Assembly: GCA_033238685.1 (NCBI GenBank)
Contig: BRZM01000010.1
Coordinates: 3,760,405 to 3,824,404 of the forward strand
DNA length: 64,000 nt
Reading direction: 5' to 3'
Origin: Lates japonicus
Lineage: Eukaryota
Below, one piece after another: positions 25,162-64,000 of this stretch. Below the pieces are notes generated by a model. That model was not told where the DNA came from. It ran no database searches and worked only from the letters and a program-made list of their open reading frames with translations. The position numbers and the translations under genes were made by a program. How positions within the stretch are numbered: the stretch's first letter is position 1; every line of letters starts with the position of its first letter.

Positions 25162-26114
25162 CTGAACAGAAGATGAATGCAAGGGAGAGATACTTTATTT
25201 TCTTAGTTCTGTCTCTTAGTCAGCTGACAGAAATTGATAAATATTTAACAATCAACAAGTTATTTATCAAAAAAAAAAGCCAAATGTTTATTTTTCCAAC
25301 TTCTCAAATGTGAAGCTGCCTTAATATTTTGTGACAGTTACATTATCATCATGAAGTCATGCAGCTGAGAACAGGAACTGTTTTGAAACTGTTTTCGCCA
25401 TGAGTCACCTCTGCTCAAGGGATCATCTTTGTCTGCAAAGTTTTATTTCACGTCAACACAACATTGTTTTTTAGCAGCTGACTCACACACTAGATAGTGA
25501 AGGAGCTAAATGCAACAACAAAGAGTGGATTTTCCTGCTTCTAACTGCATTCAAGCAATAATGCAACACTGACTAACTCAACTAAATATTCAGTGGAATA
25601 GATTATTTTAAGTAAGTTTCAAGACTTTGGAAGTTTAAATTAAAGCAACAAAATGTAACTTTGCTGAAGAAAAGCGCCCTCTGCAGCCAAAAGAGGTCAT
25701 TAATTTTGCTGGTTTCCTTGTCAGAGCAGTTATGCAGTTTTCATGCAGAAAACAAAGCCTGTCAATCAGTTGACCAGAGCTCTGACTGTGAAGTCCCCTT
25801 CACTGAACTGAAACACAGCTGAACAGTGCATATTCTTCATGATCCTCGGCTTCCAGAGCCTGAGGGCTGTCACTGTAACAAACGCACCAAACTCTGTTTA
25901 TATTTCTCAATATTTTAGAAGTTTCTTAGTTTCTTATTTTGCTTTTGACCTGTGTTTGGATTAAGTAAAACCACTGGCTATTTAGAAGAAAGGAATTTCT
26001 GCTATTAGAATCAGACTGTGTTAACAGTTCCCACAGTCTCTAAAAATGATTAAAGTCTAAGTTTACCTTCACAGTTTACCATCAGTGCAGAGAAGCTGCA
26101 ATAACTTGTCTCAC

Positions 26115-29200: not shown

Positions 29201-30689
29201 AGACATCATCAAAAAGGAATGAGAGTTGAATTTGTTTTCTTCAGTTTGCCCGGGGTCATGAGGGATCTCAGTCCATTAGCGATTAATTCACCGGTTCAGA
29301 GTATGTCACAGTTCACGCATCATGTCAACACGGTGTTGTGGTCAGACCTAAAACAGCCAATAAACAAATTTTATTCTTTTGGGAAAGTTTCATCTGACAC
29401 ATGTTTAATATAATTTAATACTTCATCCTGTGTCTCGAGTTGAACCCCTCACAAGGATGAGCATAATTAGATCTTCCTGATTTGGAGATCAAGACCCCAC
29501 AAGGATCGCTAACATGAAAACTGAAGAGTTGTGAGATAATTAGCAGGTTAGAAACCAGCTGTCGTTGCTTGTTTTCTTGTGACCTTCGCTAATTTCAATT
29601 TCTTTGTCTTTTTTAAATTTTCCCTTTTTTTCTTGGAAATAATACCCACCTTAGAAACCAATTGAGTTTTAACCGCAACACATCTCGACTACATGAAATC
29701 CTTTATTTGGTCACTGTTGGTTTCAAAGTGTTTGCTACAAATTACATTCATTAAGACAAGGGCATCACAATAGCTGGGTTTCTTGTAGCCAACAAGTCAA
29801 TCTCTGGCCCGCCATAGCGTTACCTTTAAATTATTCCAGTGATGCAGCAAGACATACACATTCTTTTAAAAGTAACTCTATAAAATTTTGGTTAGAGCAG
29901 TAAAACAGCTGCAAATAGTTATTACAGGATCGGAGTTCACAAGCAGGATACACTCTGCAGTTGTACAGTCATGTACAGAAAACAAGCTTATCAACGCTGA
30001 GGCAACAAGCTCAAAATTCATCAAAGGGCTGATAAATAAAAAAAGAATTACTGAGCTAGCTTTCCTGTGTAGACGAAATGAAGTGAGATCGTGGTGAAAC
30101 AGGTGTGTCTAGGCATGAGATGGGGATGAAAGAGGCACCATTCTTCCTATTACAAGACAGCAGGTCGTCAAAATGATTCCTAATAGTATTTTAAATGAAA
30201 TAGTTGTACAAAGTTGTTTAAACACAGGGAAATGTAGCACTGGTATCCATCAGTGCTCTGTATTGGCAGATTGTGACAAGGTATCATGAAAGAAAATGTG
30301 GGATTCCTAACTTTGACCTCCTCAACACCTACCAGTAGAAAATTAAATCACTGTTTAGTTTAACTGGTTACAACTGGTAGACACATGTTAGGACCAGGGG
30401 TTGGTAAGTCATTACTTTGTTTTATGTGTCAAGGTACAAAACGGTATCCCACTGGTTTGCATGTTACATCAGATGGGGACATAAATCTGAATATCAGGAG
30501 TGACATCAAAGTGTCAGGAGCGACCAACTCCTGTGAAGGTTTACACTCTGAAAAGTACAAATTAATCACCTAGAGTGAAGAATTAATCTCTTGTTTCTCT
30601 TGTAGTTCACTTTCATGCCTTGGGTGTGGTAATATAACTGTATGCCAGTGTGGGCGGGAAACAAATGAGAGAGTGGATGTGAGGATATG

Positions 30690-30696
<7 letters not shown>

Positions 30697-30729
<33 letters not shown>
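30697..30729. repeat. (GT)16 microsatellite
   Basis: gtgtgtgtgtgtgtgtgtgtgtgtgtgtgtgtg. Confidence 0.9.
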
Positions 30730-30731
<2 letters not shown>

Positions 30732-30879
30732 AGTGAAAAATGGGGGAGATGGAGGTTGAGTGAAAGAGGGAGGGAGTGGTGTATGTGGTGCGCGTTCAGT
30801 ACACAGAGGTTGAGGTTCCTTCCCAGATGGGCTGTTAACTCCAATTAATGCTATTGTAGCTGATTAGAAACACATTGAG

Positions 30880-31160
30880 TCTGGGGCTGCACGCACACAT
30901 GCACAAACACACAAATGTACGCACGCAAATGCACTAATCCGGAATACAGAATATGCACACACACTCAGATGCATACCACACACAAAACAAACACACACTA
31001 AAAATATACTCGTGCTTCACATGCTTACAGAAACAGGCACGCACACATCACATGCGAGTTCAAACACACACAACACTTCACCACATACACACAGACGTGC
31101 AGAGATGCAGGTCCTCACTGGCAGCACATGCAATACACAAACACACACACATGGGTTACA
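30880..31160. repeat. CA/ACAC-rich low-complexity tract (degenerate (CA)n) bordering the nfatc4 CpG island
   Basis: gcacgcacacatgcacaaacacacaaatgtacgcacgcaaatgcac...cacacacaacacttcaccacatacacacag. Confidence 0.7.
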
Positions 31161-31166
31161 GAGGTT

Positions 31167-31520
31167 CTATGCATTTGAAGCCCGTCTGTCACACAGTCTA
31201 TATCTACCGTGCCTCTTCACCTGCCTTTCACATTCAACCATATCCGCAAATGACTCTAACCCAGGTTGCCGCCGCCGCCGCCGGAGTCCAGCAGCAGGCG
31301 CCTTCACTTTCTCCCTGGGACCGGCTTCGCCACTGGCGCAAAATGTGAGTGCCCCGCTCTGCCTTCGGCGGCGGGTCCTCTCAAACACCAACTTATGAAC
31401 TCGAACTCGCCCTCCTCCCAGCCTGGGAGGAGCCCGGCGTGCGGCCCCTCATCGCCTCCGGCAAGTATAGATACAGTGATACACCCATCTCCCTGCATCG
31501 GGCGGCGATGGCGACTTTTA
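31167..31520 (-). CDS. nfatc4: Candidate nfatc4 5' coding exon within a CpG island (encodes ...LLPGWEEGEFEF then, after a 2-nt frame break, KLVFERT...); boundaries unresolved
   Basis: This is the only CpG island upstream of nfatc4 exon 2. Minus-strand translation contains EEGEFEF followed, out of frame by 2 nt, by KLVFE, which matches the conserved NFAT N-terminal motif DEELEFKLVFGEE. The ATG and donor are not confidently assigned. Confidence 0.25.
31250..31520. promoter_or_regulatory. CpG island (gccgccgccgccgg..., very high CpG density), probable nfatc4 promoter/first exon
   Basis: Observed dense CpG and GC content, unlike the surrounding AT-rich DNA. It is flanked by a CA-rich tract (30880-31160). 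Confidence 0.55.
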
Positions 31521-39477: not shown

Positions 39478-40081
39478 ATGAAAACTTCTGTAAGCATGAC
39501 AAACTTCAGTACTCCCCCCCCCACATTCACCTGTCAATGCCACAACCATACAACCAGAGGATAACAGTGTTGTGAGCAATGACTTCTCCACAGCCTTGGG
39601 CGCCCTCATCCTCGGCTTGGTCTTCCTCCTGGGCGTCCCTGGCAACTTCTTCATCGTCTGGAGCATCCTGGCACGCATCCGACGACGCTCAGTCACCGCC
39701 ATCCTCATCCTCAACCTGGCATTTGCCGATGGCTTCCTCATGATCCTCACCATCTTCTTCATCGTCTACCTCGCCAGGCAGACGTGGGACTTTGGCAACG
39801 CCATGTGCAAAGGCCTGTTCTACCTGTGCAACGCCAACATGTACGCATCCATCTTTCTCATCACACTGATGAGTGTGCACAGGCTGGTGGTTGTGGTGCT
39901 TCCAAGAAGAGTGAGCAGGATGGCCAACAGGAAGCTTGTGAGGAGGGTGCTCGTAGGCATGTGGGTGCTGGTGATGGTCATTGCTATCCCCTCGCTTGTT
40001 TTTCGGAACGTGAGAGAGGACAATGCTGAAATGAACACCGACAGACTGGTGTGTGCGCCCAATCACACCGAGGCTCGACAT
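39478..40081 (+). CDS. ltb4r: ltb4r coding exon 1 (leukotriene B4 receptor, TM1-TM4/ECL2); ATG 39478 is in frame 1 but the receptor body is in frame 2, because of a C9 tract at 39514-39522
   Basis: Translation from 39572 onwards, ...GVPGNFFIVWSILARIRRRSVTAILILNLAFADGF...MYASIFLITLMSVHRL..., aligns to human LTB4R [36 protein letters not shown]...SMYASVLLITAMSLDRS. A textbook acceptor (tttgtctcttgccctcag) lies immediately before ATG 39478. The exon ends at CAT|GTAAGT. The start-codon frame is inconsistent as assembled. Confidence 0.75.
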
Positions 40082-40924
40082 GTAAGTAGGCTTAAAAACT
40101 CTTTGTTTAAAAACCCCTCACAGTTTCCTGAAGCCCATCAAATCATTTGCTTTGTCCGACCAAATGCACAAAAACCCCAGAAGATAACTGAACCTCTGGA
40201 GCTCTCTGCCAGCATAGACGAAGAGTTTGATGAATTTGAACTTCTTAACTCATGATTTGAACTACAATTCAACAACAAGTCTGTGTGCTGATGATGATCA
40301 TTAGATATAATCAGAAGCTCCAGAAGAGGTAGAAAACTGACCTTACGTTGAGACTCTTTTCATAAACCTGCAGTGGTAGCCTAAAGGTTAGAGATGCAAA
40401 TTTGTCAGTCCAATCCCCAGACCAGCAGGGTAAATCTGGGGTGGGGAAAGTTACCACCACTGAAGTTGCTTTGAGCAAGGACCTTAAACCCAATCGCTTC
40501 AGTGAAACTGTCTGCTCTGTACTGGGAAGCTTCCATGTGTCAATGTGTCACGTACAAATGTGATCAGGGCGCTCCTGCAAAAGAAAGACTTCCTCTTAGT
40601 AAAACTACCATGAATAAATAAAGGTTTAAAAATAGGAAGAAGAAGAAACAAGTTGTGATCACACTGACAAATCATCACTGTTTAAGTCGATATTTAAATA
40701 GCTATTTATTTACACATCCTGAACTTAATGCAGAGCAACATTAGGCTGGGCTAGCATCCAAACCCTTCCAGATTGTCTCATTTAAAACCATCTACAACCA
40801 CTAATTTCAGCTCTACTCTTGTCTTGTCCTGCCTTGTTTTGACAGATCCATTCATACCTACTGAAGCCCACGCAATCATTACACATCTGTTTTTTTTTTT
40901 TTTTTGTTATCCTCCCACATGCAG

Positions 40925-41125
40925 GTACGTTTTCAGTATGCCTTTGAGACAGTGGTGGGATTCATTCTTCCTTATGCAATCATCATAACCAGTTACATCC
41001 TCATCCTGAGACGCCTGAGGCAAACCAAGTTCCGGCGAAATGTCCGCAGTGAGAAACTCATCCTGGCCATTGTGGTGATGTTCGGCGCTTTCTGGTTGCC
41101 GTACCACATCATCAACATGATACAG
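40925..41125 (+). CDS. ltb4r: ltb4r coding exon 2 (TM5-TM6: VRFQYAFETVVGFILPYAIIITSYILILRRLRQTKFRRNVRSEKLILAIVVMFGAFWLPYHIINMIQ)
   Basis: Aligns to human HLIFEAVTGFLLPFLAVVASYSDIGRRLQARRFRRSRRTGRLVVLIILTFAAFWLPYHVVNLAE. Bounded by acceptor cacatgcag and donor CAG|GTGTGT, phase 0 at both ends. Confidence 0.85.
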
Positions 41126-41618
41126 GTGTGTGGGGGCATGTTGATGGTATTATTTATGATCACATGGAATCTGCTCACATTTCTGCTTTTAGATCAATGA
41201 TGTGACCTTTTGAACGAACACAGTGTTTTGTTTTGTCCAAGGTTGCGGCTGAGTGGTACTCAGAAGGATCAGACACAAAACGAATGTGAGTAAGAAAAGA
41301 TTTTCTCACAAAAATCTCAAACACAAATATTTTCACTGACATTTGGTAGCTTTAATTTACCAAAGATTCACAAAACAATGCTCTGAAAGGTTGTGACATT
41401 AGGTTTTACCCAGTGGTTTTACCTAATGTCACATATGGAGGAAACTGATGGATTTCCACGCATTGGTTGAGACTGACATGCACTGTTATTGAACAATTTT
41501 TTTTTCTTATAAATACAAATGCAGACAAGATTATCCTTCTTAGATGAAATACCGAGATGTTTGAATATAACTTTAATTTCATGTTTTGCAATCCCTAAAT
41601 GTAACACGTTAGTTATAG

Positions 41619-41915
41619 CTGTGGTCTAAAATGTCTAGTCGTCTGTTTATCTGCAGATTGGACAAGATCTCTACATCCAGTCGTGCAGTGACCTCAGCTC
41701 TGGCCTTCATCAGCAGCTGTGCCAATCCTGTCCTCTACACCTTCGCTGGAAAGTCCTACATAAAGCAGAATGGCTTCGCCTTCATGGCTAAGCTCTTTGA
41801 GGGCATATCAGTGGACCAAACAGGAAACAAAAAGAGTCGGGGCATCAGTAAAGACAATGTGGGAACCAGTCTTGTTGACTCCGCAAACAGCACTGGACAA
41901 AATGGGAGATGAACA
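41619..41915 (+). CDS. ltb4r: ltb4r coding exon 3 (TM7 with NPxxY motif ANPVLY and the C-terminal tail; stop TGA 41913-41915)
   Basis: LWSKMSSRLFICRLDKISTSSRAVTSALAFISSCANPVLYTFAGKSYIKQNGFAFMAKLFEG... aligns to human ...RNVLIALAFLSSSVNPVLYACAGGGLLRSAGVGFVAKLLEG. The acceptor gttagttatag at 41618 gives exactly the 26-residue spacing seen in human between NLAE and ALAF. Confidence 0.8.
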
Positions 41916-47333: not shown

Positions 47334-47566
47334 GTAAGCAGCGAATAAACTAAGTCAACAACTGACAATCTTTGTATCATTTTCTCAGCTTATCAATTAA
47401 TCTTCTTATTTATAAAATTTCAGAAAATAGTGAAAAATGTCCATTGTAACTAACACAAATAAACCAAATGTAGTGGTCAATTAACTGTGCAGCTGTGGGT
47501 ACTTTGCCAGCTGTTTTAACGAAGCTGGAGCTTAACCTATTGATCTGTTTTTATTTGTGGTTTCAG

Positions 47567-47688
47567 GTGGAACGAAAGCTACAAAAAAGATTTGTTCTCC
47601 AGTCGCATTGACACGACAAAAGCTCTGGCTCAAGCCATTGCTGCATCCCCCAGTCCCCCTCACTCCTGGGTGCTGGTATCAGGTGTAG
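47567..47688 (+). CDS. sdr39u1: sdr39u1 exon 4 (WNESYKKDLFSSRIDTTKALAQAIAASPSPPHSWVLVSGV)
   Basis: Aligns to human WNETFQKEVIGSRLETTQLLAKAITKAPQPPKAWVLVTGV. Bounded by acceptor tttcag and donor G|GTAAGT. Confidence 0.85.
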
Positions 47689-47808
47689 GTAAGTCTCTGC
47701 CCAATGTCAAAACTTTAAAATTCTCATATGCTGCTTGGGTTGAGGCTTATTATATGAATATACAGATAGACAAAATATATTTCTTTTCTTTGCTTTTCAT
47801 GTCCACAG

Positions 47809-47961
47809 CTTGTTACAAACCCAGTCTGACAGCTGAGTATACAGAAGACAGTGAATGGACACCATTTGACCTCCTTTCCAAACTCGTCAAAGAGTGGGAG
47901 GCCTCAGCACTTCTTCCTGAGAATGTGGTGAAAACCACCAAACAAGTCGTCATCAGGCCTG
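47809..47961 (+). CDS. sdr39u1: sdr39u1 exon 5 (ACYKPSLTAEYTEDSEWTPFDLLSKLVKEWEASALLPENVVKTTKQVVIRPG)
   Basis: Aligns to human AYYQPSLTAEYDEDSPGGDFDFFSNLVTKWEAAARLPGDSTRQVVVRSG. Bounded by acceptor gtccacag and donor G|GTACGT. Confidence 0.85.
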
Positions 47962-48263
47962 GTACGTAAAACTGCATATTTCACCTTAAATTACAGACAA
48001 AAATTCTGCAATTTGAGGAGGTAAAAATTGCCCAGACTTCCTGCCGGACAGTAAGACTTGGTTTTGATCAGTACATACAAATAATTTTACTGTATCTTGC
48101 AAAAAGTAGGGATTAAAAAAATAAAAATTATGTGATAAAATGCAGTTTGTATCATATAGTGAAATAAATTCAGCTGAAATAAATTGTTATAGTTGATAGT
48201 ATGAGCACCCAAACACAATCACATCCCTTTTTTGACATTCCCTGTTCTTCCTCCCTCCACCAG

Positions 48264-48694
48264 GGGCAGTGCTGGGTCGCGATGGTGGTGCCATGAAGCA
48301 AATGCTGCTGCCCTTCTGGCTCGGCCTCGGGGGCACTCTGGGGTCAGGCAGACAGCCTTTCCCTTGGATCCACGTCTCGGACCTGGCAGGGATCATTGCC
48401 CAGGCCTTGGAGCCACCTACCGACACTCCGTCCCCTTCACAGCAAGTGTTTAATGGGGTTGCTCCTGCGCTGAACACCAACTATGAGTTCACTAAAGAAT
48501 TGGGCCGGGTTCTGAGGCGGCCCACCATTTTACCTGTGCCAGGCTTTGTCATGAACACCCTGATGGGCTCTGAGAGGGCTGTGGTCCTCACACAGGGTCA
48601 GAAAGTCATACCAAAGAGGACTTTAGAGGCTGGATTTCAGTACAAGTACCCGGACTTGACCTCAGCCCTGAAGGAGATTGCTGGGAATTAACAG
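48264..48694 (+). CDS. sdr39u1: sdr39u1 terminal exon (AVLGRDGGAMKQMLLPFWLGLGG...QKVIPKRTLEAGFQYKYPDLTSALKEIAGN; stop TAA 48692-48694)
   Basis: Aligns to human [36 protein letters not shown]...EGQKVIPQRTLATGYQYSFPELGAALKEIVA. Acceptor ctccaccag. Confidence 0.9.
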
Positions 48695-51483: not shown

Positions 51484-51595
51484 CTGCTCAGCAAAACACA
51501 AAAATGCTTAGAATGTCTGATGAGCTATTTGACAAAAGCCCAAACAAAAAATGTATCAAATCTAAATCGAATCACTAAAACGTGTGTGTGTGCAC

Positions 51596-51690
51596 CTTTG
51601 AGAAGTCGCTCTGCCAGAATGTTCATTGGTCCAGAGCTGTCCACACACACCATCTCCTTCAAAGAGTCGGCCCAGTACGAGTGTGATGCC
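51596..51690 (-). CDS. mettl17: mettl17 exon ([32 protein letters not shown])
   Basis: Aligns to human [32 protein letters not shown]. Bounded by acceptor ctctgcag and donor G|GTGCAC. Confidence 0.85.
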
Positions 51691-51771
51691 CTGCAGAGAC
51701 AGTGACTGGATTTGTAGTCTTGTAATTTACATGAAAACTCTCTTTGTGTTGCAGTTGTATTATGCACTAAC

Positions 51772-51845
51772 CAGACAACTGTTCCCAGCCCAGAACCAAA
51801 ATCCAGGAGAGACTGAGGGGCAAAGGAGGGATCTCTCTTCTTTAT
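51772..51845 (-). CDS. mettl17: mettl17 exon (SAM-binding motif I region: [25 protein letters not shown])
   Basis: Aligns to human [25 protein letters not shown]. Bounded by acceptor cattccag and donor TG|GTTAGT. Confidence 0.85.
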
Positions 51846-52064
51846 CTGGAATGATGGGAAAAAAAGACAATCAGTCATTTAGGACATGTAATAGCAGAAA
51901 TTTGATAATCTTAGGTAATAAGGCATTTATTCTGTCATTATCATAAGCTTTACCACTGTAAGTCTATAAAAAATGTTGTAGGTGATGTGGATGAACTGAC
52001 TTTTTAAGGGAAATCCTGTTGTCATCATGTGAATTAACCTGTGATCTCCACTATTTTCTCATAC

Positions 52065-53479: not shown

Positions 53480-54043
53480 ATTTTCGCAGTTATTACGGTA
53501 TTTCTTAAGGTTTCTTTTTTTATTTTGACTTTCAGTCACACCCCGCGACAAGCACGGGGTACCACATTAGCTCGTTTCCAATCCTTCAACAAAATAACTC
53601 CGACTACTGGTTAAGGCGGAACCTTTGGGACCGAAGTTGTGTTCCCCCCGTATAAGGGCACATTCAGAGCGCTCACTCTGCGCTTATTTGCGGGTCCGAC
53701 TTGTGACTTACTTTACATAGATTTCATATGAGTATTATAAGAAGAAGTTAAAGTATATGTGATTAAATACATTTTCACGCTCAATTGTGCATCAGGTTTA
53801 TGATAAAATTGCTGCCACGGTACCGGCTATGCCTTCGCGCCCTATTTGATGAGAGTGTAGAGCGCATGCGTGACAAGTTATTTTTCCAACTGCCGAGTGA
53901 TTCATCTTCGCACCAGACGATCTTTAGCGGCACCGGCCAGGAAACGGCGGTGAGGAAAGTTTTAAGTCTGTCTCCTTGTCTGTTGTTGCTGTGGCCCATT
54001 TATTACTGTAACTAGCCAATTATAATTTTTTACATAAACCACC
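53480..54043. promoter_or_regulatory. Bidirectional promoter between mettl17 (-, ATG 53479) and parp2 (+, ATG 54044); contains TATAAGGG (~53655), GCGCATGCGTGA NRF1-like palindrome (~53855) and CCAAT (agCCAATtat ~54015)
   Basis: The two start codons face outward, 565 bp apart. The interval is CpG-enriched (ccccgcgacaagcacgggg, ttcgcgccc, agagcgcatgcgtgac). Confidence 0.6.
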
Positions 54044-54116
54044 ATGAGGCGAACAAGAGGGTCGAGGAATAAAAGTCAGGGTGCAGCCGAAAACGAAGAG
54101 GTCCAGTCAAAAACAG
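54044..54116 (+). CDS. parp2: parp2 coding exon 1 (basic N-terminus MRRTRGSRNKSQGAAENEEVQSKT)
   Basis: ATG at 54044, donor ACAG|GTTTGT. The basic N-terminus resembles human PARP2 MAARRRRSTGGGRARALNESKRV. Confidence 0.7.
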
Positions 54117-55102
54117 GTTTGTTTGATGCTGGAAGGAAGAGTTAGCTAGCTGCTGTGTTGTGACTACGTCACTTCTGCACCCGGGACATGTCTGAACATT
54201 ATATATCTGAGCCATGTACAGTCTGAACAGAGAAGGGAAAAATTAATGAGACCTAATTTATTGTCCATGTAGCCTTTATTGTAGTTGCAAAGCTTTCACG
54301 GAACAGTGAAATCCATAAGGTGATATCTAACACGCTGGTAGTGTAGTAAAAAATATTAACAATTGTAATGTTCAGTATAGATTTATTTATTTAACAGTAA
54401 AATGCTGCATGTTTTATTGATCTATTTGTATTAACAATCAAATGTCACTTAATGTCGTTTAAATCAGCAAATTAAATCTGCACCTCCACTACTTTTACTT
54501 CTGATACTTTCAGCACATTTTGCTTATGACACTAATGCACTTTAACTGAAGTAGGATATTAAATGCACAACACTTAATTGTAATGGATTTTACACTGTTG
54601 TATATGCCAGCCCTGAAATAAATGTTACATTGAAGACACTTATAATGGGAACAGATTAAGAGAGATGTTGAGGTCATACTTTTCCGACAAGGAGTCTAAA
54701 GGCAACATATAAGTGATGAGTTGAGTGATTCAAAAGATAAATAAGTGTATTGTGTTGATAATTTTATAGCTGTTTTCAAGTGACTAGTATAACAGGACAA
54801 GAGATGTTTTCACAATCATACATTCAGCAGTAAAAAAATATGTTGATACAGCAGATATCATATCATACAATATTAGTGACTTCACTTTGTTCCAGTTATG
54901 CAAAACCCTTGCCTGGATGATTAATTATTTGATTATTGATTAAGACATCAATCATTTACTCTTTACAATGCAAAATAAAGACAAATGGCAGGTACAAGTT
55001 ACCAGAGTCTAAAGTGCAGTCTTGAAATGTAAGGATTCATTATTCATTATTGCACAAAGTTACAAACAACTCTACTCTCTCTCCCTCTCTCTGTGCGATC
55101 AG

Positions 55103-55312
55103 TGTGGCAGTGGAAGGGAGATGAAGGACAGTGGGAACTGTACTCGCCCTCAGCCTGCGCTGTGTTGGACTCTGCCGTCTCCTCAGGAAAAACCACCGTC
55201 ACTCTGACTCTGGGCTCTGGGACAGCCTATGAAGTTGACCTGAAGAAGATGGTCCAGATTAATCCTGTCACAAAATACAAGAGGAAGATTCGCTCTCAGA
55301 TGGTAAAGTCAG
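55103..55312 (+). CDS. parp2: parp2 exon 2, encoding a complete WWE domain (VWQWKGDEGQWELYSPSACAVLDSAVSSGKTTVTLTLGSGTAYEVDLKKMVQINPVTKYKRKIRSQMVKSG); an alternative donor at 55302 is possible
   Basis: Bounded by acceptor ctgtgcgatcag and donor TCAG|GTGTGT (or ATG|GTAAAG). In frame with exon 1 (phase 1) and exon 3. The W-x-W...G-x-W-x-x-Y...Y-x-V-D-L-x-x-M-x-Q-x-N...R-K-I-R pattern matches the WWE domains of RNF146, PARP11 and Deltex. Confidence 0.7.
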
Positions 55313-55465
55313 GTGTGTGTTTGTGTTTTGATTTCTGTCATCTCCACTGCTGGAAGTAGTATTATATGAAATGTATAGTTTTTGTTCATATGATAGCTTT
55401 TTAAATAAAGAAATACAAATTACTAAATGTGTTTAAAATGTTTCTTCTGTTCTCCTTTTGTCCAG

Positions 55466-55627
55466 AGAGTTTGGATGAAGCCGGTGACTCGACTGCCTCT
55501 TCTACAGTTCAAGTTAAAAAGGAAGAGGAGGAGACGGAGGAGCCACCTGTAGCTAAGAGAAGGAGAGGGCAAAGCAAGAGTCAGACAAAAACTGAGGACA
55601 TGCCCAAAGATGAAATAAAAAGTGAAG
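55466..55627 (+). CDS. parp2: parp2 exon 3 (acidic/basic linker with NLS: ESLDEAGDSTASSTVQVKKEEEETEEPPVAKRRRGQSKSQTKTEDMPKDEIKSE)
   Basis: Bounded by acceptor tccttttgtccag and donor G|GTAACA. Phase-consistent with exons 2 and 4. Confidence 0.7.
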
Positions 55628-55879
55628 GTAACATGCTTCTATTTGTTGTATGTTGTATGGGTAATACAATTCTAAAGTGAAATGTAATTTTGAAGTTGTT
55701 GAGGGACTGGTGACAAACAAAGCGCAGTAACTTTGCCAACATCATGAAGTGGTTTCTGTTTTGTTTCTAAAACACATCAGTTTATACAAGTTAACAGGAC
55801 ATGATATTACCTGTGGTTAATACTATATTGTCAGATTACCTCATCAATGTTTTGTCTCTGATCTTTGGATGTTGGACAG

Positions 55880-55950
55880 AGGTTGTGAAGACGGTGGTCA
55901 TGAAGGGCAAAGCTCCAGTGGACACTGAATGTAAAGCCAAACTGGGAAAG
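55880..55950 (+). CDS. parp2: parp2 exon 4 (EVVKTVVMKGKAPVDTECKAKLGK)
   Basis: Aligns to human PARP2 SESVKALLLKGKAPVDPECTAKVGK. Bounded by acceptor gttggacag and donor AAG|GTACTG. Confidence 0.85.
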
Positions 55951-56241
55951 GTACTGAAGACATGAGAATCATGATTGGCATCTGTTCTGTTTGTGGTTTA
56001 ACACCTGTTAGAAGTTTTTCTAAAGTTTTCAGTTACAGTTCCCCTTGTTAAAAAGCTGCTATTTATGGTTTATTATACATGAGTGTGTGAGACCGAGTGA
56101 TGAGACTTGTCTAGAAGGAGTTTGGTTAGCACTTTTTAGATGATTGTTGTCTTAAACCACATTAAACAACACAGGCATCATAAAGGATGCTGATCAAGTG
56201 CAGTTACTTTTTATTAATATATTCTTTATTTCCTCTTTCAG

Positions 56242-56292
56242 GCTCATGTTTACAGTGAAGGGAATGATGTTTACGATGTGATGTTGAACCAG
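56242..56292 (+). CDS. parp2: parp2 exon 5 (WGR domain start: AHVYSEGNDVYDVMLNQ)
   Basis: Aligns to human AHVYCEGNDVYDVMLNQ. Bounded by acceptor cctctttcag and donor CAG|GTAAAA. Confidence 0.9.
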
Positions 56293-56447
56293 GTAAAATA
56301 TTTAGTAACATTTATTTTCAAATTGACTTAAATGGATCTGCTTTTTTAAATTATCGTGTGGATTATGTTTTCATTTCACATTTTGATCTGTGGGAAAGTG
56401 AATAGATTTTTAGGCTTGCGACAAACATTTCCTGTATTACTTTGCAG

Positions 56448-56544
56448 ACAAATCTTCAGTTTAACAACAACAAATACTACCTGATCCAGCTGCTGGAAGA
56501 TGACAGCTCCAAAGCTTACAGTGTGTGGATGAGATGGGGCAGAG
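56448..56544 (+). CDS. parp2: parp2 exon 6 (WGR: TNLQFNNNKYYLIQLLEDDSSKAYSVWMRWGR)
   Basis: Aligns to human TNLQFNNNKYYLIQLLEDDAQRNFSVWMRWGR. Bounded by acceptor ctttgcag and donor G|GTGAGT. Confidence 0.9.
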
Positions 56545-56681
56545 GTGAGTTTACTGTGTATGTACTGGTGATTCTTTGCATATTTTATATGTTTATATTT
56601 ATGCAGGAAATGAACACAAATTAGTTCTGAAATTACTCAGTTTTGTATTGTATTGGGTGGTGTCTCCTTATGTGTCATCAG

Positions 56682-56757
56682 TGGGCAAAGTGGGTCAAAA
56701 CAGCCTTACAGCCTGTGGTGGAGATCTGCTGAAAGCCAAGAATATCTTCAAGAAAAA
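56682..56757 (+). CDS. parp2: parp2 exon 7 (VGKVGQNSLTACGGDLLKAKNIFKK)
   Basis: Aligns to human VGKMGQHSLVACSGNLNKAKEIFQKK. Bounded by acceptor tgtcatcag and donor AA|GTGAGA. Confidence 0.85.
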
Positions 56758-56847
56758 GTGAGATTGCGCCTTTGAAAAAAATAGTTTCACATGTCTCACA
56801 TGGAAGTGGGCTCAGTGAAATTCTGAAACTTGCTTGCTTTGCCACAG

Positions 56848-56950
56848 GTTTTTAGACAAGACCAAGAACGAGTGGGAACAGCGCATGAGTTTTGAGAAAG
56901 TAGCTGGAAAATATGACATGGTGTTCATGGACTACAGCACAAATGAAAAG
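56848..56950 (+). CDS. parp2: parp2 exon 8 (KFLDKTKNEWEQRMSFEKVAGKYDMVFMDYSTNEK)
   Basis: Aligns to human KFLDKTKNNWEDREKFEKVPGKYDMLQMDYATNTQ. Bounded by acceptor tttgccacag and donor AAG|GTAGTG. Confidence 0.85.
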
Positions 56951-57087
56951 GTAGTGCTTAAAAATAAAAGAACTACTATCTCCTCAGTATTTTTATGATT
57001 ATTACTTGACAGTCCGGTGACAGGAATTCCCACTGAATCGAAGATGGGGTCTATTATTATGTACATACATGTATTTCACTGTTCTAG

Positions 57088-57241
57088 GATGAGAACCAGA
57101 CTACAGTGGACACTGTACCCAAAAAGAAGACCTCCAAGCTGGATGTGAAGATCCAGTCTCTCCTAGAGCTCATCTGTGACCTTAAAGCCATGGAGGAGTG
57201 TGTGCTGGAGATGAAGTTTGACACCCGCAAAGCTCCTCTTG
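57088..57241 (+). CDS. parp2: parp2 exon 9 (regulatory helical domain start: DENQTTVDTVPKKKTSKLDVKIQSLLELICDLKAMEECVLEMKFDTRKAPL)
   Basis: Aligns to human ...ESQLDLRVQELIKLICNVQAMEEMMMEMKYNTKKAPL. Bounded by acceptor gttctag and donor G|GTGAGT. Confidence 0.85.
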
Positions 57242-57349
57242 GTGAGTGTGACAGAATCGATCAAAACAACACAACATCTGAATGAGTAGTCAGACAAGTG
57301 ATCAGTGTTTTCAAGCCTTTCATTGTTGTGCTTCATATTTCAAATGCAG

Positions 57350-57488
57350 GCAAACTAACCTCAGAGCAGATCAGTGCAGGCTACACTGCACTAAAGAGGA
57401 TTGAGGAGTGTTTGAAGAAGAAGGGCAGCAATCGTGAGCTGCTGGAAGCATGCAACCAGTTCTATACCCGTATCCCTCATGACTTTGG
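57350..57488 (+). CDS. parp2: parp2 exon 10 (GKLTSEQISAGYTALKRIEECLKKKGSNRELLEACNQFYTRIPHDFG)
   Basis: Aligns to human GKLTVAQIKAGYQSLKKIEDCIRAGQHGRALMEACNEFYTRIPHDFG. Bounded by acceptor caaatgcag and donor GG|GTAAGG. Confidence 0.9.
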
Positions 57489-57596
57489 GTAAGGAATGTG
57501 TGGCTGTACAGTTAGAGGGATCCAATAAAGGTGTTGGAAAATTGATCAGAGCCGTTGGTCTCTATTTTATTGTAATTAAAAGTTGTAATTCTCCAG

Positions 57597-57660
57597 GTTG
57601 AAAACTCCCCCAATCATCCGCACAGAGGATGAGCTGAAGGAGAAAATTGCACTGCTGGAG
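57597..57660 (+). CDS. parp2: parp2 exon 11 (LKTPPIIRTEDELKEKIALLE)
   Basis: Aligns to human LRTPPLIRTQKELSEKIQLLE. Bounded by acceptor ttctccag and donor GAG|GTAAAC. Confidence 0.85.
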
Positions 57661-57786
57661 GTAAACAGGTTCTCCATTAACTTAAAGATTTTAGCATTTC
57701 AATGTGGTCTACCATTATTCAGCTTATTTCTTCACTTAAATCTGTGGTCCTTGCTATGATAACTATGTATATATGTCTTTTTTTAG

Positions 57787-57921
57787 GCATTGAGTGATAT
57801 CCAGATAGCAGTGAAAATGGTCCAGTCCAGTGAAGGAAGTGACGAACATCCTCTGGACAGACAATACCGCTCCCTCCAGTGCAACCTGCAGCCTCTGGAC
57901 TCTGGCAGTCAAGAGTACAAG
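57787..57921 (+). CDS. parp2: parp2 exon 12 (ALSDIQIAVKMVQSSEGSDEHPLDRQYRSLQCNLQPLDSGSQEYK)
   Basis: Aligns to human ALGDIEIAIKLVKTELQSPEHPLDQHYRNLHCALRPLDHESYEFK. Bounded by acceptor tttttag and donor AAG|GTCTCT. Confidence 0.85.
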
Positions 57922-58076
57922 GTCTCTCTGTTGTAAATAAGTACTGTCCCATCAGACAAGGAGAGGAATCCATTGTAGAACTATAAACTCCTGGGTTTCC
58001 TTGCTCTGTTTATTTGTCTGCAAGCAACAAGTTCATGGAAAACTCTGTAAACTCCCCTGATCTCTATGTTTTGAAG

Positions 58077-58204
58077 GTGATAGAAAAGTATCTGCAGTCC
58101 ACTCACGCTCCCACCCATTGTGACTACTCTATGACCATCCTTGACATCTTCTCAGTGGACAGAGACGGGGAGAGCAACAACTTCCTCTCACAGTTACACA
58201 ACAG
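58077..58204 (+). CDS. parp2: parp2 exon 13 (catalytic domain: VIEKYLQSTHAPTHCDYSMTILDIFSVDRDGESNNFLSQLHNR)
   Basis: Aligns to human VISQYLQSTHAPTHSDYTMTLLDLFEVEKDGEKEAFREDLHNR. Bounded by acceptor gttttgaag and donor AG|GTAATA. Confidence 0.9.
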
Positions 58205-58366
58205 GTAATACAGACTGGATACAGTTGTCAGTTTATTTTGCCTCAGATGTCATATGTTGTGTTGGAACACATTCTGTGAAATCTGCTTTGTTAAGCTCCA
58301 TATTTACCTGTGTAAAGTCTGAAAATTATTAGTTTGTGTGTGTGTGTCTGTTTGTCTGACTACCAG

Positions 58367-58466
58367 GACTCTGCTGTGGCATGGTTCCCGTCTGTCTAAC
58401 TGGGTCGGCATCCTCAGTAAGGGACTCAGAGTGGCCCCACCTGAAGCTCCCGTCACTGGCTACATG
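58367..58466 (+). CDS. parp2: parp2 exon 14 (catalytic H-G-S: [33 protein letters not shown])
   Basis: Aligns to human [33 protein letters not shown]. Bounded by acceptor gactaccag and donor ATG|GTAGGA. Confidence 0.9.
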
Positions 58467-58565
58467 GTAGGATGGCTAGAAAAATACATGCATGTGCTGT
58501 TTTTCACTTGAACTTGAACCAACTAATCACACTGACAGTTATTTCCCTGTTCTTCTTTCATCTAG

Positions 58566-58664
58566 TTTGGTAAAGGTATCTACTTTGCTGACATGTCTTC
58601 AAAGAGCGCCAACTACTGTTTTGCCAATCAGCACAATCATGTTGGACTGCTGCTACTGTGTGAG
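58566..58664 (+). CDS. parp2: parp2 exon 15 ([33 protein letters not shown])
   Basis: Aligns to human [33 protein letters not shown]. Bounded by acceptor tcatctag and donor GAG|GTGAGT. Confidence 0.9.
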
Positions 58665-59116
58665 GTGAGTTGACAGTTTTCTGTGGCGAGATTAAAGTTT
58701 TGTTTCACCTGCCAGTGGCAATGAAAATGTAGGTAGTTTTGTGCACATGGCACGTCACCCCATATCCGGGCAGGTGCAGGACAACAGATTGATGATTGAT
58801 GAATATTTTAAAGAGTGTGCACACTGGGCTTTAACTCCCAAAAACTATATCTCATTGAGAGAATCAACGTTTTGACTCTTAATCATATTTGGAATATTTT
58901 CCAATTTGTTGAAGTGTTTTTTCTTTTCTCATTTATAGAGTTGATTTTCATTTTGCAGGTCTCACACCTGCTCATTGTTGTCTGTGGAAGGTAACAGGAG
59001 AAACCTCTTGACTTATCCTCAAAAGACAAACTGTGGTGCTTAGAGGCTGTTTATTTCAGACCCTATAGACTTGTCAACACAAGACCACAACTCATGTGTC
59101 TGTGCGTGGCTGCAGG

Positions 59117-59241
59117 TCGCTCTGGGAGACTGTAATGAGCTGCTAGACGCCGACTACGAGGCCAACAAGCTGCCTGCTGGTAAACACAGTACCAAGGGCC
59201 TCGGACAGACTGGACCTGACCCCAAAAACTCTGTCACACTG
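59117..59241 (+). CDS. parp2: parp2 exon 16 (VALGDCNELLDADYEANKLPAGKHSTKGLGQTGPDPKNSVTL)
   Basis: Aligns to human VALGQCNELLEANPKAEGLLQGKHSTKGLGKMAPSSAHFVTL. Bounded by acceptor ggctgcag and donor CT|GTGAGT. Confidence 0.85.
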
Positions 59242-59465
59242 TGAGTCTGTCTCATTGCACTGATACATTTCATACAGGCCAAACATTGATTTAATCGCAC
59301 TCAACTGTTACACAACAAAAATCAGTAAATTATCTGAGGGGTTGATCATCTATCTAAAAACTTGGTATATTCTGATAGTTAAAAGTAAAGTAAAGGCAAT
59401 GCCATTTGTACTTAAATGTGTTAAAATCATCTGAATGAGAATATGTCCACCTCTCTCTATCTCAG

Positions 59466-59628
59466 GGATGGTGTCACAGTGCCAATGGGGCCTGGGGTGA
59501 AGACGGGGGTGGGTAAAAACAGCGGTTACTCCCTCCTCTACAATGAGTTCATCGTTTACAACCCTGCCCAGACCCGCATGAGGTACCTGCTTCGGATCAA
59601 GTTCAACTACTCTTCACTGTGGTGAGGC
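59466..59628 (+). CDS. parp2: parp2 terminal exon (catalytic Glu in YNEF: DGVTVPMGPGVKTGVGKNSGYSLLYNEFIVYNPAQTRMRYLLRIKFNYSSLW; stop 59626-59628)
   Basis: Aligns to human NGSTVPLGPASDTGILNPDGYTLNYNEYIVYNPNQVRMRYLLKVQFNFLQLW. Acceptor tctatctcag. Confidence 0.9.
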
Positions 59629-59789: not shown

Positions 59790-60611
59790 AACGTTTACTT
59801 TCTCAGTGAGATATGACAGAAAATTAATCAACAACTTTTAGACATTTTTCAACAAAATGCCAAATTTTTTTTGATTGCAGCCTCTCGAATGTGAGTATTT
59901 GTTGGTTTTCTTTTTCATATCTGATATCAAACTGACTGTCTTTTAGATTTAAACTGTTGGTCACGTAAAACAAGCAATTTTTATACATTACACTAGGCTG
60001 TTGACGCCCTACAGATATGTTAACAGTCTGTGTTTGGCAGATTCAAAGTTTATACATCTCACCCAATGTGTAAATGGTCATGTGAGTATATAATTCAAGT
60101 TATAAAAACACCAACAAAACTGTTTCTACTTTTTCTAAAAGGTGAGGATGGATCTATGTGATATGAAGAAAATACGCACAACATTGAGCACTACTTTTTT
60201 CTATTTTGCTTTATATTGCGAATGTCCTCTTATCAATATAAGGTGTATTCCATGTTGCATTTTGGTTTTCTGCTTTGGTGCTTTATGTGGCACAAACAAA
60301 ATGAGTTTTTAGGAATGTGTCTTAAAAAAATAATAAATTGATTATTTTTTGTTCCAATAGTTGCTGGGTCAGATGGGGTAACATGCAATCCAAAACAACT
60401 AATTCAGTACAAAAATGTCTTATATTATTTTTTATTTATGTAAAAACTGAGACAAAGACAAGATCATTCAGAGTTTTGTCACTTAAAACAGGATTCAGAT
60501 ACATTATATACAGTGCATGGTGATAATAATAATGATAATAAAGGACATTTTCATTATTGGTACATTTTGTCTGTCTGTGTGTGCGTGTACATGTTAGTTG
60601 TGTGTACAGTT

Positions 60612-60746
60612 TCACCTCCTCCCCAGCAGGTAGAGGAAGATGAGGACTATGTCGAGGTAGATCATGAGAGCAGCGTTGATGTATTCCTCAGGATCCAGGC
60701 GGAAGCTCATCATCCCCATCATCAGCTGACAGTCGATCATCAGAAA
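60612..60746 (-). CDS. grina-like: GRINA/TMBIM3-like terminal exon (FLMIDCQLMMGMMSFRLDPEEYINAALMIYLDIVLIFLYLLGRR; stop at 60612-60614)
   Basis: Aligns to human GRINA [49 protein letters not shown]. Acceptor ctgtctcag. Confidence 0.8.
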   Translation of the reverse strand, partial: FLMIDCQLMMGMMSFRLDPEEYINAALMIYLDIVLIFLYLLGRR

Positions 60747-61631
60747 CTGAGACAGGGAGGGAGAGGAGGAGACGATGATTTAGGACAGGGTGAGAGATTA
60801 CCACCAGATAACTGCTAGTTAACGCTGACATATTTTAACACACTGCAGTAGGAGAAGTACAGTTGTCAATAATAGATTTAATGATGGCTAAAGTCTGGTA
60901 TCAATAAAATGGATGTTTCTGGTTTAACAAAAAGGATCTTACTCTTTAACAAGAAAGTGTATCTCTGTAGGAATCTTGTCACTTTAGTGGATGTACTGCA
61001 GTTGTTTAGCTGTTCTGGGTTCACCACTCTTGCTCAAATGTGGACCAATTGCAAGGATTTTTGTCCCTATCAGTCATTTACACCCATGGTAAAATAAGGC
61101 CCAGGTTTAAAAATACCTTAGTCGTCACAGTCAGTTAATCACATGGTTAAATTTTTAAAAGGGTATCGTAAATGAAGTGAAACTGTGCTTTGACATCAGA
61201 GTCAACCTCACACTGAACTTCCTTTTCTCACAAAGGAACAAGCTTTGGCACCCCCAGACCACTGGGACTTCAGTGTGAGGGCAGTAACTGTAAAGCTTAA
61301 TAAGCACTAAATTCAGTTCCCTTCTTCTTTTTCTTGCCTGTCATTGACAGTAAAATCACTCATAACTGTTTCTCCTACCCCTGACCCTAAAGGATAAGCA
61401 GTATAGATAGAGGATGGATGGATTTTTATCCTAGCTACAGTGGTTCTAAACTACTCTTAAAGGCCAAGTGTAAATTGTAGCCAAAAAAAAGTCAGGACAA
61501 CAAAAATGCCTGTATTTTGTATGAATGTGTTCCTTCTGTTTTATCATAAGGGAAGTCCAGTTTAGGTGTTTGTACATCCCTTTAGATAGTAGTAGTATTA
61601 TTATGATATTTGTTGTTGTTCTTCCCCATAC

Positions 61632-61775
61632 CAGTGAATACAGCAGAGCTCCCAGACATCCGTAAGCGATATCAGTGATGTAGGAGTAGTAGAAGGTGCA
61701 GAAGAACCCAAACATGATCAGATCCATGGCCAGAACCAGAAGAATACCATAAAAAATAGTGAAATCATAACGAGT
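61632..61775 (-). CDS. grina-like: GRINA/TMBIM3-like exon (TRYDFTIFYGILLVLAMDLIMFGFFCTFYYSYITDIAYGCLGALLYSL)
   Basis: Aligns to human GRINA [30 protein letters not shown]...EIVYASLGALLFTC. Bounded by acceptor ttttgcag and donor CTG|GTATGG. Confidence 0.85.
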
Positions 61776-61912
61776 CTGCAAAATAACACAGAAAAAACAG
61801 AGTTTGAGTGCCATAACTTCAAAACTGATACATAAGGCAGCTGAAAAGTCTGCACATTACCGATCTATCATCATGATAGGTTTACACAGGAGACATTTTC
61901 AGCTCGACTAAC

Positions 61913-62041
61913 CTGTGCTGAGAAAGCGATGATTGCCAGAGAAATAGCCAGCGTTGCTCCCATAGTAATGACCACAGCAGTGGTGTTGTGGAAGGAGGCA
62001 ATGGTTCCCACCATGTACGACAAACTCAGGGTTACCACAAC
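61913..62041 (-). CDS. grina-like: GRINA/TMBIM3-like exon (VVVTLSLSYMVGTIASFHNTTAVVITMGATLAISLAIIAFSAQ)
   Basis: Aligns to human GRINA [47 protein letters not shown]. Bounded by acceptor gcctacag and donor CAG|GTTAGT. Confidence 0.9.
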
Positions 62042-62706
62042 CTGTAGGCACAAAGTTAAGTGTATTAAACATCACCATATCATTTGAACATGCCTCTGAT
62101 ATGACCCATGTCATTTATGTTTTAAGTAATTATAGTCTTCACTGAAAACCACATCCAGGTACAGTTTGAAGTGTTTGTGCCATGTTCTGCACAATATATT
62201 TCCAAAACAGGAAGAGTCTGTCTTACTTTTAACATACTGACAAAAGCTCAGCGGCTCAGTGTGAATATGTGGCCCTGTGGTAGGAGGAAGGTTTTCATTT
62301 GGAAATAATAAAACTACTAAATAATGTACCAGCTTCTCTCAAATCCATTTAGATGTCTAAGAGAGGTCTAAATGTTGAGCAAAACCAAGCAGTGAGATTG
62401 GCCAAAATGCCTTAGCATTGCTACTTTTATGTCCTGACTGTGCTGGAATAGATGCTTTTCATGTACAGATATTTTTTTTATAAAGAAGGTGTAATACTTT
62501 TACTCCCACTTGGGTGTTTTTTTTCCCCAGAACTTTATTGAGCAACATTTATCTGTGACAGGGGCATGTCTACTTGACCAGCATATTTCACTTCTCTTTC
62601 CACGATGTGACTGTGTGAAGTGACAGTTTTCACATCAAATATATTTTTAAAGTTCAAAGTTATTTTTATTATTATTATTTTTGTGGCTCTTGTATTTCTA
62701 ACCCAC

Positions 62707-62907
62707 CAGTCCCACAATGTTCCAGGGGTGACGGCGGCTGAAGGACTTGCAGTAGCTGAGGGTGATGGCGACCACAGCAAAGATGATGAAGGAGCTGATG
62801 TAGGCCCACAGGTTGATATGCACCGCCTTTTTGACCACAGTGGAGAAGGTGAACACACACACTACACTGAAGGTGAACAGCAACTGGAGTGTCAGGATGC
62901 TGAACAC
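62707..62907 (-). CDS. grina-like: GRINA/TMBIM3-like exon (VFSILTLQLLFTFSVVCVFTFSTVVKKAVHINLWAYISSFIIFAVVAITLSYCKSFSRRHPWNIVGL)
   Basis: Aligns to human GRINA [67 protein letters not shown]. Bounded by acceptor cctgtgcag and donor CTG|GTGGGT. Confidence 0.9.
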
Positions 62908-63146
62908 CTGCACAGGGGGAGAAAAATTATTTTAATAATTTTTTGGTGCAGAAATATTATTCTGTTAATCACATTACAATCCCTGAAATTTCTCCGGCAA
63001 CCTCGAGGAGGTTCCCGACCCCAGGTTGGGAAATTCTGAATACTGAATACTGTTCATCAGTATTCACAAAGATTATTTGTCATTGGTCAGAGTTTGATTT
63101 TTGAATAAATGCAGATATTCCTTAAATCAGTGGCCAGACTACAAAC

Positions 63147-63437
63147 CTTTCTAACAAACCCTCTTCTCACTGTCTTGTCGTCAAAAGATGACGAGGCTGT
63201 GAGGGGAGTCGTATCTGACTGGGCGTCTGGGATAATGTCACGAAACGACTCATATCCAGTGCAAGGCTGATGGATGCAAGTTGTCTCAGTTTTGGGTGGA
63301 GAGTACATATCTGGGGTTGCAGAGTAGGGTGGAGGTTGCTGCCCATGGTAGGGGTACGCTGGTGGTGGTGAGGACATATCAGAGCCAGCAGCGTCCTGTG
63401 CCTCTTTGGATGTGATGGGGTCAGCTGTATCTGACAT
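63147..63437 (-). CDS. grina-like: GRINA/TMBIM3-like coding exon 1 (Pro/Tyr-rich N-terminus MSDTADPITSKEAQDAAGSDMSSPPPAYPYHGQQPPPYSATPDMYSPP...SSFDDKTVRRGFVRK)
   Basis: ATG at 63437. Donor AAG|GTTTGT at 63147. FDDKTVRRGFVRKV matches the TMBIM-family junction (WDDKSIRQAFIRKV in GRINA). PPxY motifs are present. Confidence 0.8.
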
Positions 63438-64000
63438 TGTGGTGGGAAATGGGGACCAAAGACAATGTTCAGTCAGTCAAAGGTGATGGATACATAATGT
63501 AGAGAAACGGAACTGGGTAGTTCCTGGTTTACGTAACTGTGGGTAGGGCTGCAACTTCTTGTTACAAAACCCACGGAAATTCAGTTATTAAACAGAGAAA
63601 AGCAGGTAACTCTCAGATTGGAGAAGCTGGGGTAAGAGAATATTTGGCAATTATTGCTTGGTTAAATTTACTTTTACAATTAAATGATTATCAAAATTCT
63701 CATTTTCTCTTGATTAGTTCAACAACTAATGGTTACAGCTCTAATTACAGTAAATATATGATTTGCTCATTAACTTTGTTACCTGAACCACTGACAAGGT
63801 AGTTCCCACTGGTGCATTTTGGCCAGTGTTTTTAATGCCCTATAAGGCTGGAAATTGTGAGACCATGTTGAAGATTCATTCAGTCACTAATGGTCAAACG
63901 CTGGCAAGAAAAGAAACTAGAGGGAGAACAAAAGAGCTGGAGTTTCCTGCCTTTTATTGTCAGTTTAACATTTTCAGTGACCACCCTACCAGCATGTACA

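Follow-up and report, generated by a model that had tools for sequence, protein, structure and literature searches.

Mammalian PARP2 has no WWE domain, and a 210-nt exon in a PARP2-like gene of Lates japonicus appears to encode one. This raises the question of whether the exon is a regular part of the fish gene, what its product would bind, and whether the arrangement is old or new. We addressed these points in a 64,000-nt stretch of genomic DNA that contains the gene, referred to here as the window. With a probability of about 0.85, we read the feature from sequence comparison as an exon that a PARP2 orthologue uses constitutively to encode a WWE domain, and as an ancestral feature of that gene.

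A parp2 gene model was built with the full-length cDNA of another fish as a guide. It comprises 17 exons on the plus strand (54044-59625), all introns are GT-AG, and the ORF runs without interruption for 648 aa (Table 1). The domain order of the predicted protein is WWE-linker-WGR-PARP_reg-PARP. The catalytic H-Y-E triad falls at His493, Tyr527 and Glu623 and is predicted to be compatible with poly-ADP-ribosylation. When the 500-residue body was compared with the human paralogues, it aligned with PARP2 end to end at 775 bits and scored 451 bits against PARP1 and 205 bits against PARP3. By this comparison the gene is a PARP2 orthologue, because its score for PARP2 exceeds those for PARP1 and PARP3.

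The initial annotation had described the gene as PARP2-like with an H-Y-E catalytic domain, and the bit scores, Pfam domains and triad bear this out. The first exon (54044-54116) and the GKAPVDTECKAKLGK exon (55880-55950) were also recovered as described. Its length estimate of ~649 aa differs slightly from the 648 aa of the rebuilt model. The splice chain that it proposed, from exon 1 through the WWE exon to the exon at 55880, was right in its order; it left unmentioned the 162-nt linker exon at 55466-55627, and the chain in the rebuilt model is exon 1-WWE-linker-55880. The length estimate implies that this linker exon had been counted, though it is absent from the text of that annotation.

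Table 1. Features of the window and of the predicted PARP2 protein. Positions are window coordinates unless given as protein residues.
Feature	Position	Strand	Description
parp2 exon 1	54044-54116	+	ATG (caccATGa context), basic N-terminus MRRTRGSRNKSQGAAENEEVQSKT; ends in phase 1
parp2 exon 2	55103-55312	+	210 nt, phase 1-1, one complete WWE domain; protein residues 25-94
parp2 exon 3	55466-55627	+	162 nt, phase 1-1; codes for residues 95-148, an acidic/basic linker predicted to be disordered and carrying an NLS-like AKRRRG motif
parp2 exon 4	55880-55950	+	EVVKTVVMKGKAPVDTECKAKLGK; alignment to human PARP2 from residue 88 onward begins here
parp2 exons 5-8	56242-56292, 56448-56544, 56682-56757, 56848-56950	+	WGR domain, all GT-AG
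parp2 exons 9-12	57088-57241, 57350-57488, 57597-57660, 57787-57921	+	PARP_reg, helical regulatory domain
parp2 exons 13-17	58077-58204, 58367-58466, 58566-58664, 59116-59240, 59466-59625	+	ART catalytic domain; last exon includes TGA stop
WGR	residues 183-262		86.5 bits (Pfam)
PARP_reg	residues 297-427		157.9 bits (Pfam)
PARP (ART catalytic)	residues 441-642		263.9 bits (Pfam)
Predicted ligand-contact codons	55111-55284	+	alignment to HUWE1, TRIP12, DTX1, RNF146
Trp28	55111-55113	+	adenine-stacking position
Asp31	55120-55122	+	RNF146 Arg110 position
Trp35	55132-55134	+	in the list of predicted ligand-contact codons
Tyr67	55228-55230	+	predicted proximal-phosphate contact
Gln76	55255-55257	+	predicted adenine contact
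Arg85	55282-55284	+	predicted proximal-phosphate contact
MARVEL-domain ORF	8175-9083	+	single exon, 303 aa
NFAT-like exons	20015-25194	-	
Rhodopsin-family GPCR	39500-41909	+	
DUF1731/SDR39U1-like exon	47544-48688	+	
Rsm22/METTL17-like exon	51528-51878	-	
Multi-pass membrane protein	60444-63476	-	Pro/Tyr-rich N-terminus

Exon 2 is preceded by ...ctgtgcgatcag, a polypyrimidine tract ending in cag, and followed by gtgtgtgttt, giving an AG/GT-bounded exon. Its phase-1 translation over 55103-55312 is VWQWKGDEGQWELYSPSACAVLDSAVSSGKTTVTLTLGSGTAYEVDLKKMVQINPVTKYKRKIRSQMVKS. Joined to the last G of exon 1 (54116), which supplies base 1 of the Val codon at the junction, the exon translates as V-WQWKGDEGQWELYSPSACAVLDSAVSSGKTTVTLTLGSGTAYEVDLKKMVQINPVTKYKRKIRSQMVKS-(E). 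Against the Pfam WWE profile PF02825 the exon peptide scored 64.2 bits (E 1.4e-17) and covered profile positions 2-66 of 67; a search of the whole 648-aa product called the domain at residues 25-88 with 60.3 bits. The gathering score of this profile is 21.1 bits, and a match so far above the cut-off is not due to chance. Of the WWE signature, Trp26/Trp28, Trp35, Tyr67, Gln76 and Arg85 are present in the window, and the Glu position is occupied by Asp47, as in HUWE1. The earlier proposal of a 210-nt exon with good splice sites, correct phases and a WWE product was verified at the AG/GT borders, in the 1-1 phase and in the PF02825 search.

The splice chain in the Lates japonicus window rests on orthologous cDNA and comparative conservation. 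Logan contig L001 (SRR11928275, 2593 nt) is a spliced PARP2 cDNA of another fish. It is colinear with all 17 exons of the model, and consecutive HSPs meet end to end along the cDNA where the junctions are predicted. This heterologous cDNA matches 54037-54058 in exon 1 and 55100-55300 over exon 2, and in a single frame it reads MRRARS...KT-VWSWKGDDDQW...-linker-...KGKAPVDAECKA-stop-LGKAHVY...NYSSLW. A genomic contig of a further fish, L003, aligns only in five blocks that correspond exactly to exons 1-5 in the same order (54035-54122, 55099-55320, 55432-55631, 55841-55953 and 56208-56298), the first of them supporting exon 1, and it keeps the cag and gt that border the WWE exon. Similarity in the ORFs through the WWE exon of five further fish contigs ends exactly at both exon borders. 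Because the dN/dS of the WWE exon is 0.17 (window versus L003), the exon is judged to evolve under purifying selection. Over 54044-56300, where a cDNA alignment had been suggested as a check, the chain from exon 1 through WWE and linker to WGR is supported, the cDNA being that of another fish (L001).

Two observations were made on these contigs. At nt ~575-585 of L001 (SRR11928275_349), an in-frame TAA replaces the Lys codon of the invariant CKAKLGK motif and splits the called ORF in two. An error of sequencing or assembly is the simplest explanation, though it may be a real nonsense allele. Upstream of the parp2 ATG, a 65-nt block at 53900-53964 (+) shares 74% identity with L003 while the flanking non-coding DNA is unalignable; the block is possibly a promoter or 5'UTR element.

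Constitutive use of the exon had to be weighed against the idea of an alternative cassette, in which the main mRNA would run from exon 1 straight into the linker or the exon at 55880, yielding a mammal-like protein of 578 aa, and the WWE form would be minor or condition-specific. Since exon 2 and exon 3 each have phase 1-1, skipping either preserves the frame; the WWE-skipped product would indeed be in frame at 578 aa. A catfish model predicted as 'isoform X2' (P0012) begins just ahead of WGR and has no WWE, but P0012 has a different first exon and does not represent exon 2 skipping. The WWE exon is present in the sole full-length transcript contig recovered (L001), and the domain is found in all recovered teleost gene models that reach the N-terminus (P0001-P0004 and P0006). 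The low dN/dS also argues against a cassette of minor use, and we consider this reading improbable; a minor WWE-less isoform may occur. It is very improbable that the WWE stretch comes from a separate overlapping gene or that the WWE-PARP2 fusion is an artefact of gene prediction. Chimeric public models do exist at the locus, P0004 joining a PARP2 N-terminus to a GPCR. However, one cDNA contig (L001) spans the WWE and the whole PARP2 body, the WWE exon lies on the same strand between exons 1 and 3 with matching phases, and the exon order is likewise conserved in L003. WWE and WGR are also linked on two short intron-free contigs, P0027 (818 nt) and P0028 (964 nt), from distant organisms.

The layout of these N-terminal internal exons is modular: exon 2 holds exactly one WWE domain, and both it and exon 3 have phase 1-1. 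Such modularity would permit in-frame loss of the WWE exon, which is consistent with the one-WWE form of teleosts and the zero-WWE form of mammals.

Relatives of the window protein were examined for the same arrangement. With the N-terminal region as query, WWE followed by WGR was found in teleost gene models from Champsocephalus, Prochilodus, Albula and Liparis, which match the window at 61-80% in the WWE, and in the chimeric model from Pungitius. Two tandem WWEs precede WGR in Polyodon spathula (paddlefish), Mobula birostris (ray), Chelydra serpentina (turtle) and Solemya velum (bivalve). A JGI sequence (290 aa) also carries two tandem WWEs before WGR; its contig is 964 nt long and must be intron-free. 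An N-terminally cut ENA sequence (224 aa on an 818-nt contig) likewise joins WWE to WGR. In the naked mole-rat N-terminus (P0014) only WGR was called, and the sequence aligns only with exon 1 and the linker. This result, together with the alignment of human PARP2 from residue 88, agrees with the earlier statement that mammalian PARP2 has no WWE.

Because paddlefish, ray, turtle and bivalve carry two WWEs before WGR, the architecture is, by this comparison, ancestral and reduced in teleosts, with one WWE left there and none in mammals; as an ancestral feature it would be no teleost invention. A lineage-specific, teleost architecture, as the initial annotation had suggested, is rejected by the tandem WWE and WGR of Polyodon, Mobula, Chelydra and Solemya.

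The window WWE is probably the survivor of an ancestral tandem pair. In a joint MAFFT alignment the one WWE of teleosts falls opposite the second member of that pair. Its position, this alignment and the comparison with paddlefish favour correspondence to WWE2; against this assignment, teleost WWE scored higher in BLAST against ray WWE1 than against ray WWE2. The window gene does not have a Deltex-type tandem of two adjacent WWE domains with a short linker; two WWEs are present in the relatives P0005, P0007, P0008 and P0010. By tblastn there is one WWE-coding stretch within the 64-kb window. When the two WWEs of paddlefish, ray, turtle and bivalve (WWE1 and WWE2) served as tblastn queries against the whole window, the search found no relic of a first WWE (other matches E > 0.1), and none was found in intron 1 of parp2.

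The feature is already known as an ordinary, previously described part of non-mammalian PARP2, its architecture having been published in 2014. Perina et al. 2014 (DNA Repair 23:4; PMC4245714) stated explicitly that a WWE lies at the N-terminus of non-mammalian PARP2. The order given there is the same, N-terminal WWE followed by WGR, regulatory and catalytic domains, and the window gene is a plain member of this group. No substantive difference separates the two, teleosts having one WWE versus two in paddlefish, ray, turtle and bivalve. The PF02825 call is also present in the public protein records of these PARP2 proteins, and the earlier remark that the architecture is rarely noted does not hold. 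The family survey of Citarelli et al. 2010 listed WWE only in clades 2 and 3. Sections 3.1.1 and 4 of PMC4245714 cite 'bird' among the species with a WWE-bearing PARP2, a point on which that survey is internally inconsistent. A literature search for experimental work on a PARP2 WWE found only the 2014 survey (PMC4245714).

To characterize the predicted domain, an AlphaFold2 model of the WWE was built from 18 orthologous sequences. The model (mean pLDDT 91.6) shows the canonical WWE fold, with six strands (2-4, 10-12, 31-36, 40-45, 50-52 and 59-63) and one helix (15-26). In a Foldseek search of the PDB, all 24 of the 24 best matches were WWE domains, and the top match was HUWE1 6pfl (TM 0.88, rmsd 1.1 A). 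The closest solved structures are the WWEs of HUWE1 and TRIP12 (PDB 6pfl, 8rd7 and 9bks; TM 0.80-0.88, rmsd ~1 A, 31-39% identity). By sequence, the best PDB match was WWE2 of DTX1 (E 1.6e-9), with HUWE1 and TRIP12 also among the best. DTX1 WWE2 belongs to the tandem WWE of the Deltex proteins (DTX1/2/4); non-teleost PARP2 relatives carry a Deltex-like pair, in contrast to the window gene, which retains only one WWE.

Residue roles in the pocket were taken from PMC11269756 and PMC10877565. The RNF146 sequence in the pocket alignment was checked only against published residue numbers and the PDB matches. In liganded WWE structures, a Gln forms a double hydrogen bond with adenine (Munzker et al. 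2024, PMC11269756), the aromatic residue that stacks on adenine is Trp except for Tyr107 of RNF146, and the proximal phosphate is held by Tyr and Arg (PMC11269756). The preference of RNF146 for iso-ADP-ribose has been ascribed to the Tyr107 hydroxyl, which contacts the distal ribose, and to the basic Arg110 loop, which contacts the distal phosphate (PMC11269756). At the Tyr107 and Arg110 positions, Trp and acidic residues are found in HUWE1 and TRIP12, whose WWEs bind ADPr/ADP and PAR with no iso-ADPr preference (PMC11269756).

The aligned window domain has each of the four ligand contacts that are strictly conserved (Trp28, Tyr67, Gln76 and Arg85), and they are invariant or nearly so across PARP2 WWE orthologues. 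The window WWE shares the fold of RNF146 (PDB 3v3l; TM 0.82-0.85) and has equivalents of its Gln153, Tyr144 and Arg163. In contrast, Tyr107 of RNF146 corresponds to Trp28 and its Arg110 to Asp31. Because Trp28 and Asp31/Glu32 occupy these positions, the pocket is predicted to be of the HUWE1/TRIP12/Deltex type and would recognise the ADP(-ribose) unit of PAR, not to be of the RNF146 type. The stacking Trp, the Tyr/Gln/Arg contacts and the acidic beta-loop-beta region are all common to HUWE1, TRIP12 and the window WWE; they differ in setting, the former lying within HECT ubiquitin ligases and the window WWE being fused to a PAR polymerase. An iso-ADPr-specific WWE of RNF146 type was rejected, since Trp28 and Asp31/Glu32 replace Tyr107 and the basic loop. 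The iso-ADP-ribose reading put forward initially does not fit residues that are those of HUWE1/TRIP12 and are not RNF146 features.

Quite probably, the PARP2 WWE does bind PAR or ADPr. It is conceivable that the fold has been retained without such binding, as a structural module or for protein-protein interaction, as proposed for some PARP-family WWEs. In line with this, acidic residues (Asp31, Glu32) make up the window counterpart of the RNF146 loop that holds the distal phosphate, and the eponymous Glu position is Asp47. HUWE1 and TRIP12, however, share the acidic loop (HUWE1 also has the Asp) yet bind ADPr/ADP and PAR, and the nearest structures to the window model are ligand-bound HUWE1 and TRIP12. 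Moreover, the residues that touch adenine and the proximal phosphate in all liganded WWE structures (Trp, Tyr, Gln and Arg) are present and conserved. A domain without ligand binding thus seems unlikely.

An AF2 model of residues 1-281 was used to view the WWE in relation to WGR. Both domains were confident (WWE pLDDT 84-93), with a pTM of 0.45, whereas residues 95-157, in a linker rich in Glu, Lys, Ser and Thr, had pLDDT < 50. No fixed WWE-WGR interface was supported in this model, a PAE-free and weak negative. The picture suggested by the model is of a predicted PAR-binding head on a flexible, NLS-bearing tether. Packing of the WWE against WGR, for which an AlphaFold check had been proposed, is not seen with any confidence at this linker pLDDT and pTM.

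These features suggest how a PAR-binding WWE could act in fish PARP2. The pocket would bind ADP-ribose units of PAR laid at DNA lesions by PARP1 or by PARP2 itself, and this binding could concentrate or retain PARP2 on chromatin that is already PARylated. There, the retained enzyme may extend or branch the polymer. A disordered acidic/basic linker of ~60 residues would tether the WWE to the DNA-break-sensing WGR and the H-Y-E catalytic domain. The initial annotation had spoken of a PAR reader coupled to a PAR writer, a fair description of the predicted functions of a WWE joined to H-Y-E PARP2 domains.

Human PARP2 (PDB 6x0l and others) resembles the window protein in its WGR-HD-ART body, in its H-Y-E triad, and in a basic N-terminal start with a KR-rich, NLS-like stretch in the N-terminal region. 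It differs in having no WWE; the only fish counterparts of the mammalian N-terminus of ~87 residues are exon 1 and the linker exon. The response of the human enzyme to PAR has been ascribed instead to the disordered N-terminus (PMC6089979) and to XRCC1 (PMC11838041). Chen et al. 2018 (PMC6089979) described PAR binding by the disordered human N-terminus, which promotes branched-chain synthesis, and Lin et al. 2025 (PMC11838041) described PAR-dependent recruitment of PARP2 in human cells via XRCC1. The WWE route would be a folded-domain version of mammalian PARP2 recruitment and activation through the disordered N-terminus and XRCC1.

A broader evolutionary reading is tentative, and we hold it at somewhat less than even odds. 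The ancestral bilaterian PARP2 might have been a self-reading PAR polymerase with a Deltex-like tandem WWE, of which teleosts kept one domain and mammals lost both. The fish WWE would then provide direct, high-affinity PAR-dependent recruitment and activation, replaced in mammals by XRCC1 bridging and a disordered PAR-binding N-terminus. If this is true, fish parp2 would be a natural system in which PAR reading could be separated from PAR branching by point mutations in a structured pocket. Whether PAR recruits mammalian PARP2 through the enzyme's own N-terminus or through XRCC1 is a matter of continuing debate, and a fish PARP2 with a folded, mutable, predicted PAR-binding pocket would offer a clean comparison. 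In domain content, parp2 models of zebrafish or medaka are not equivalent to the human protein. As a finding of a genome scan the feature carries little weight, being a normally annotated domain of a well-known gene with an architecture found in the literature and in domain databases. That architecture is already published, and only the account of functional and evolutionary replacement would be new.

The remainder of the window was surveyed for neighbouring genes (Table 1), which would fit conserved synteny with the human PARP2 region at 14q11-q12. Three fragments of the NFAT-like exons and two ORF fragments of the minus-strand membrane-protein gene (60444-63476) gave no Pfam match. In mammals, PARP2 and the RNase P RNA gene RPPH1 are arranged head to head. 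Scanning the whole window (1-64000) with Rfam at gathering thresholds found no family, and thus no RNase P RNA gene beside parp2. Long ORFs on both strands at ~30570-31400 were rejected as genes; they are artefacts of (CA)n/(TG)n-type microsatellite and low-complexity sequence with HTHTHT runs.

The chimeric stickleback model P0004 (Pungitius pungitius LOC134105232, 274 aa) begins as PARP2, with the WWE, the linker and the first part of WGR, and continues as the C-terminal half of a 7TM receptor. The receptor half matches exons of the window GPCR at 40865-41909 (+), including AIVVMFGAFWLPYHIINM... and SSRAVTSALAFISSCANPVLYT. Although the chimera is an artefact of annotation, it shows parp2 and the GPCR gene to be neighbours in stickleback.
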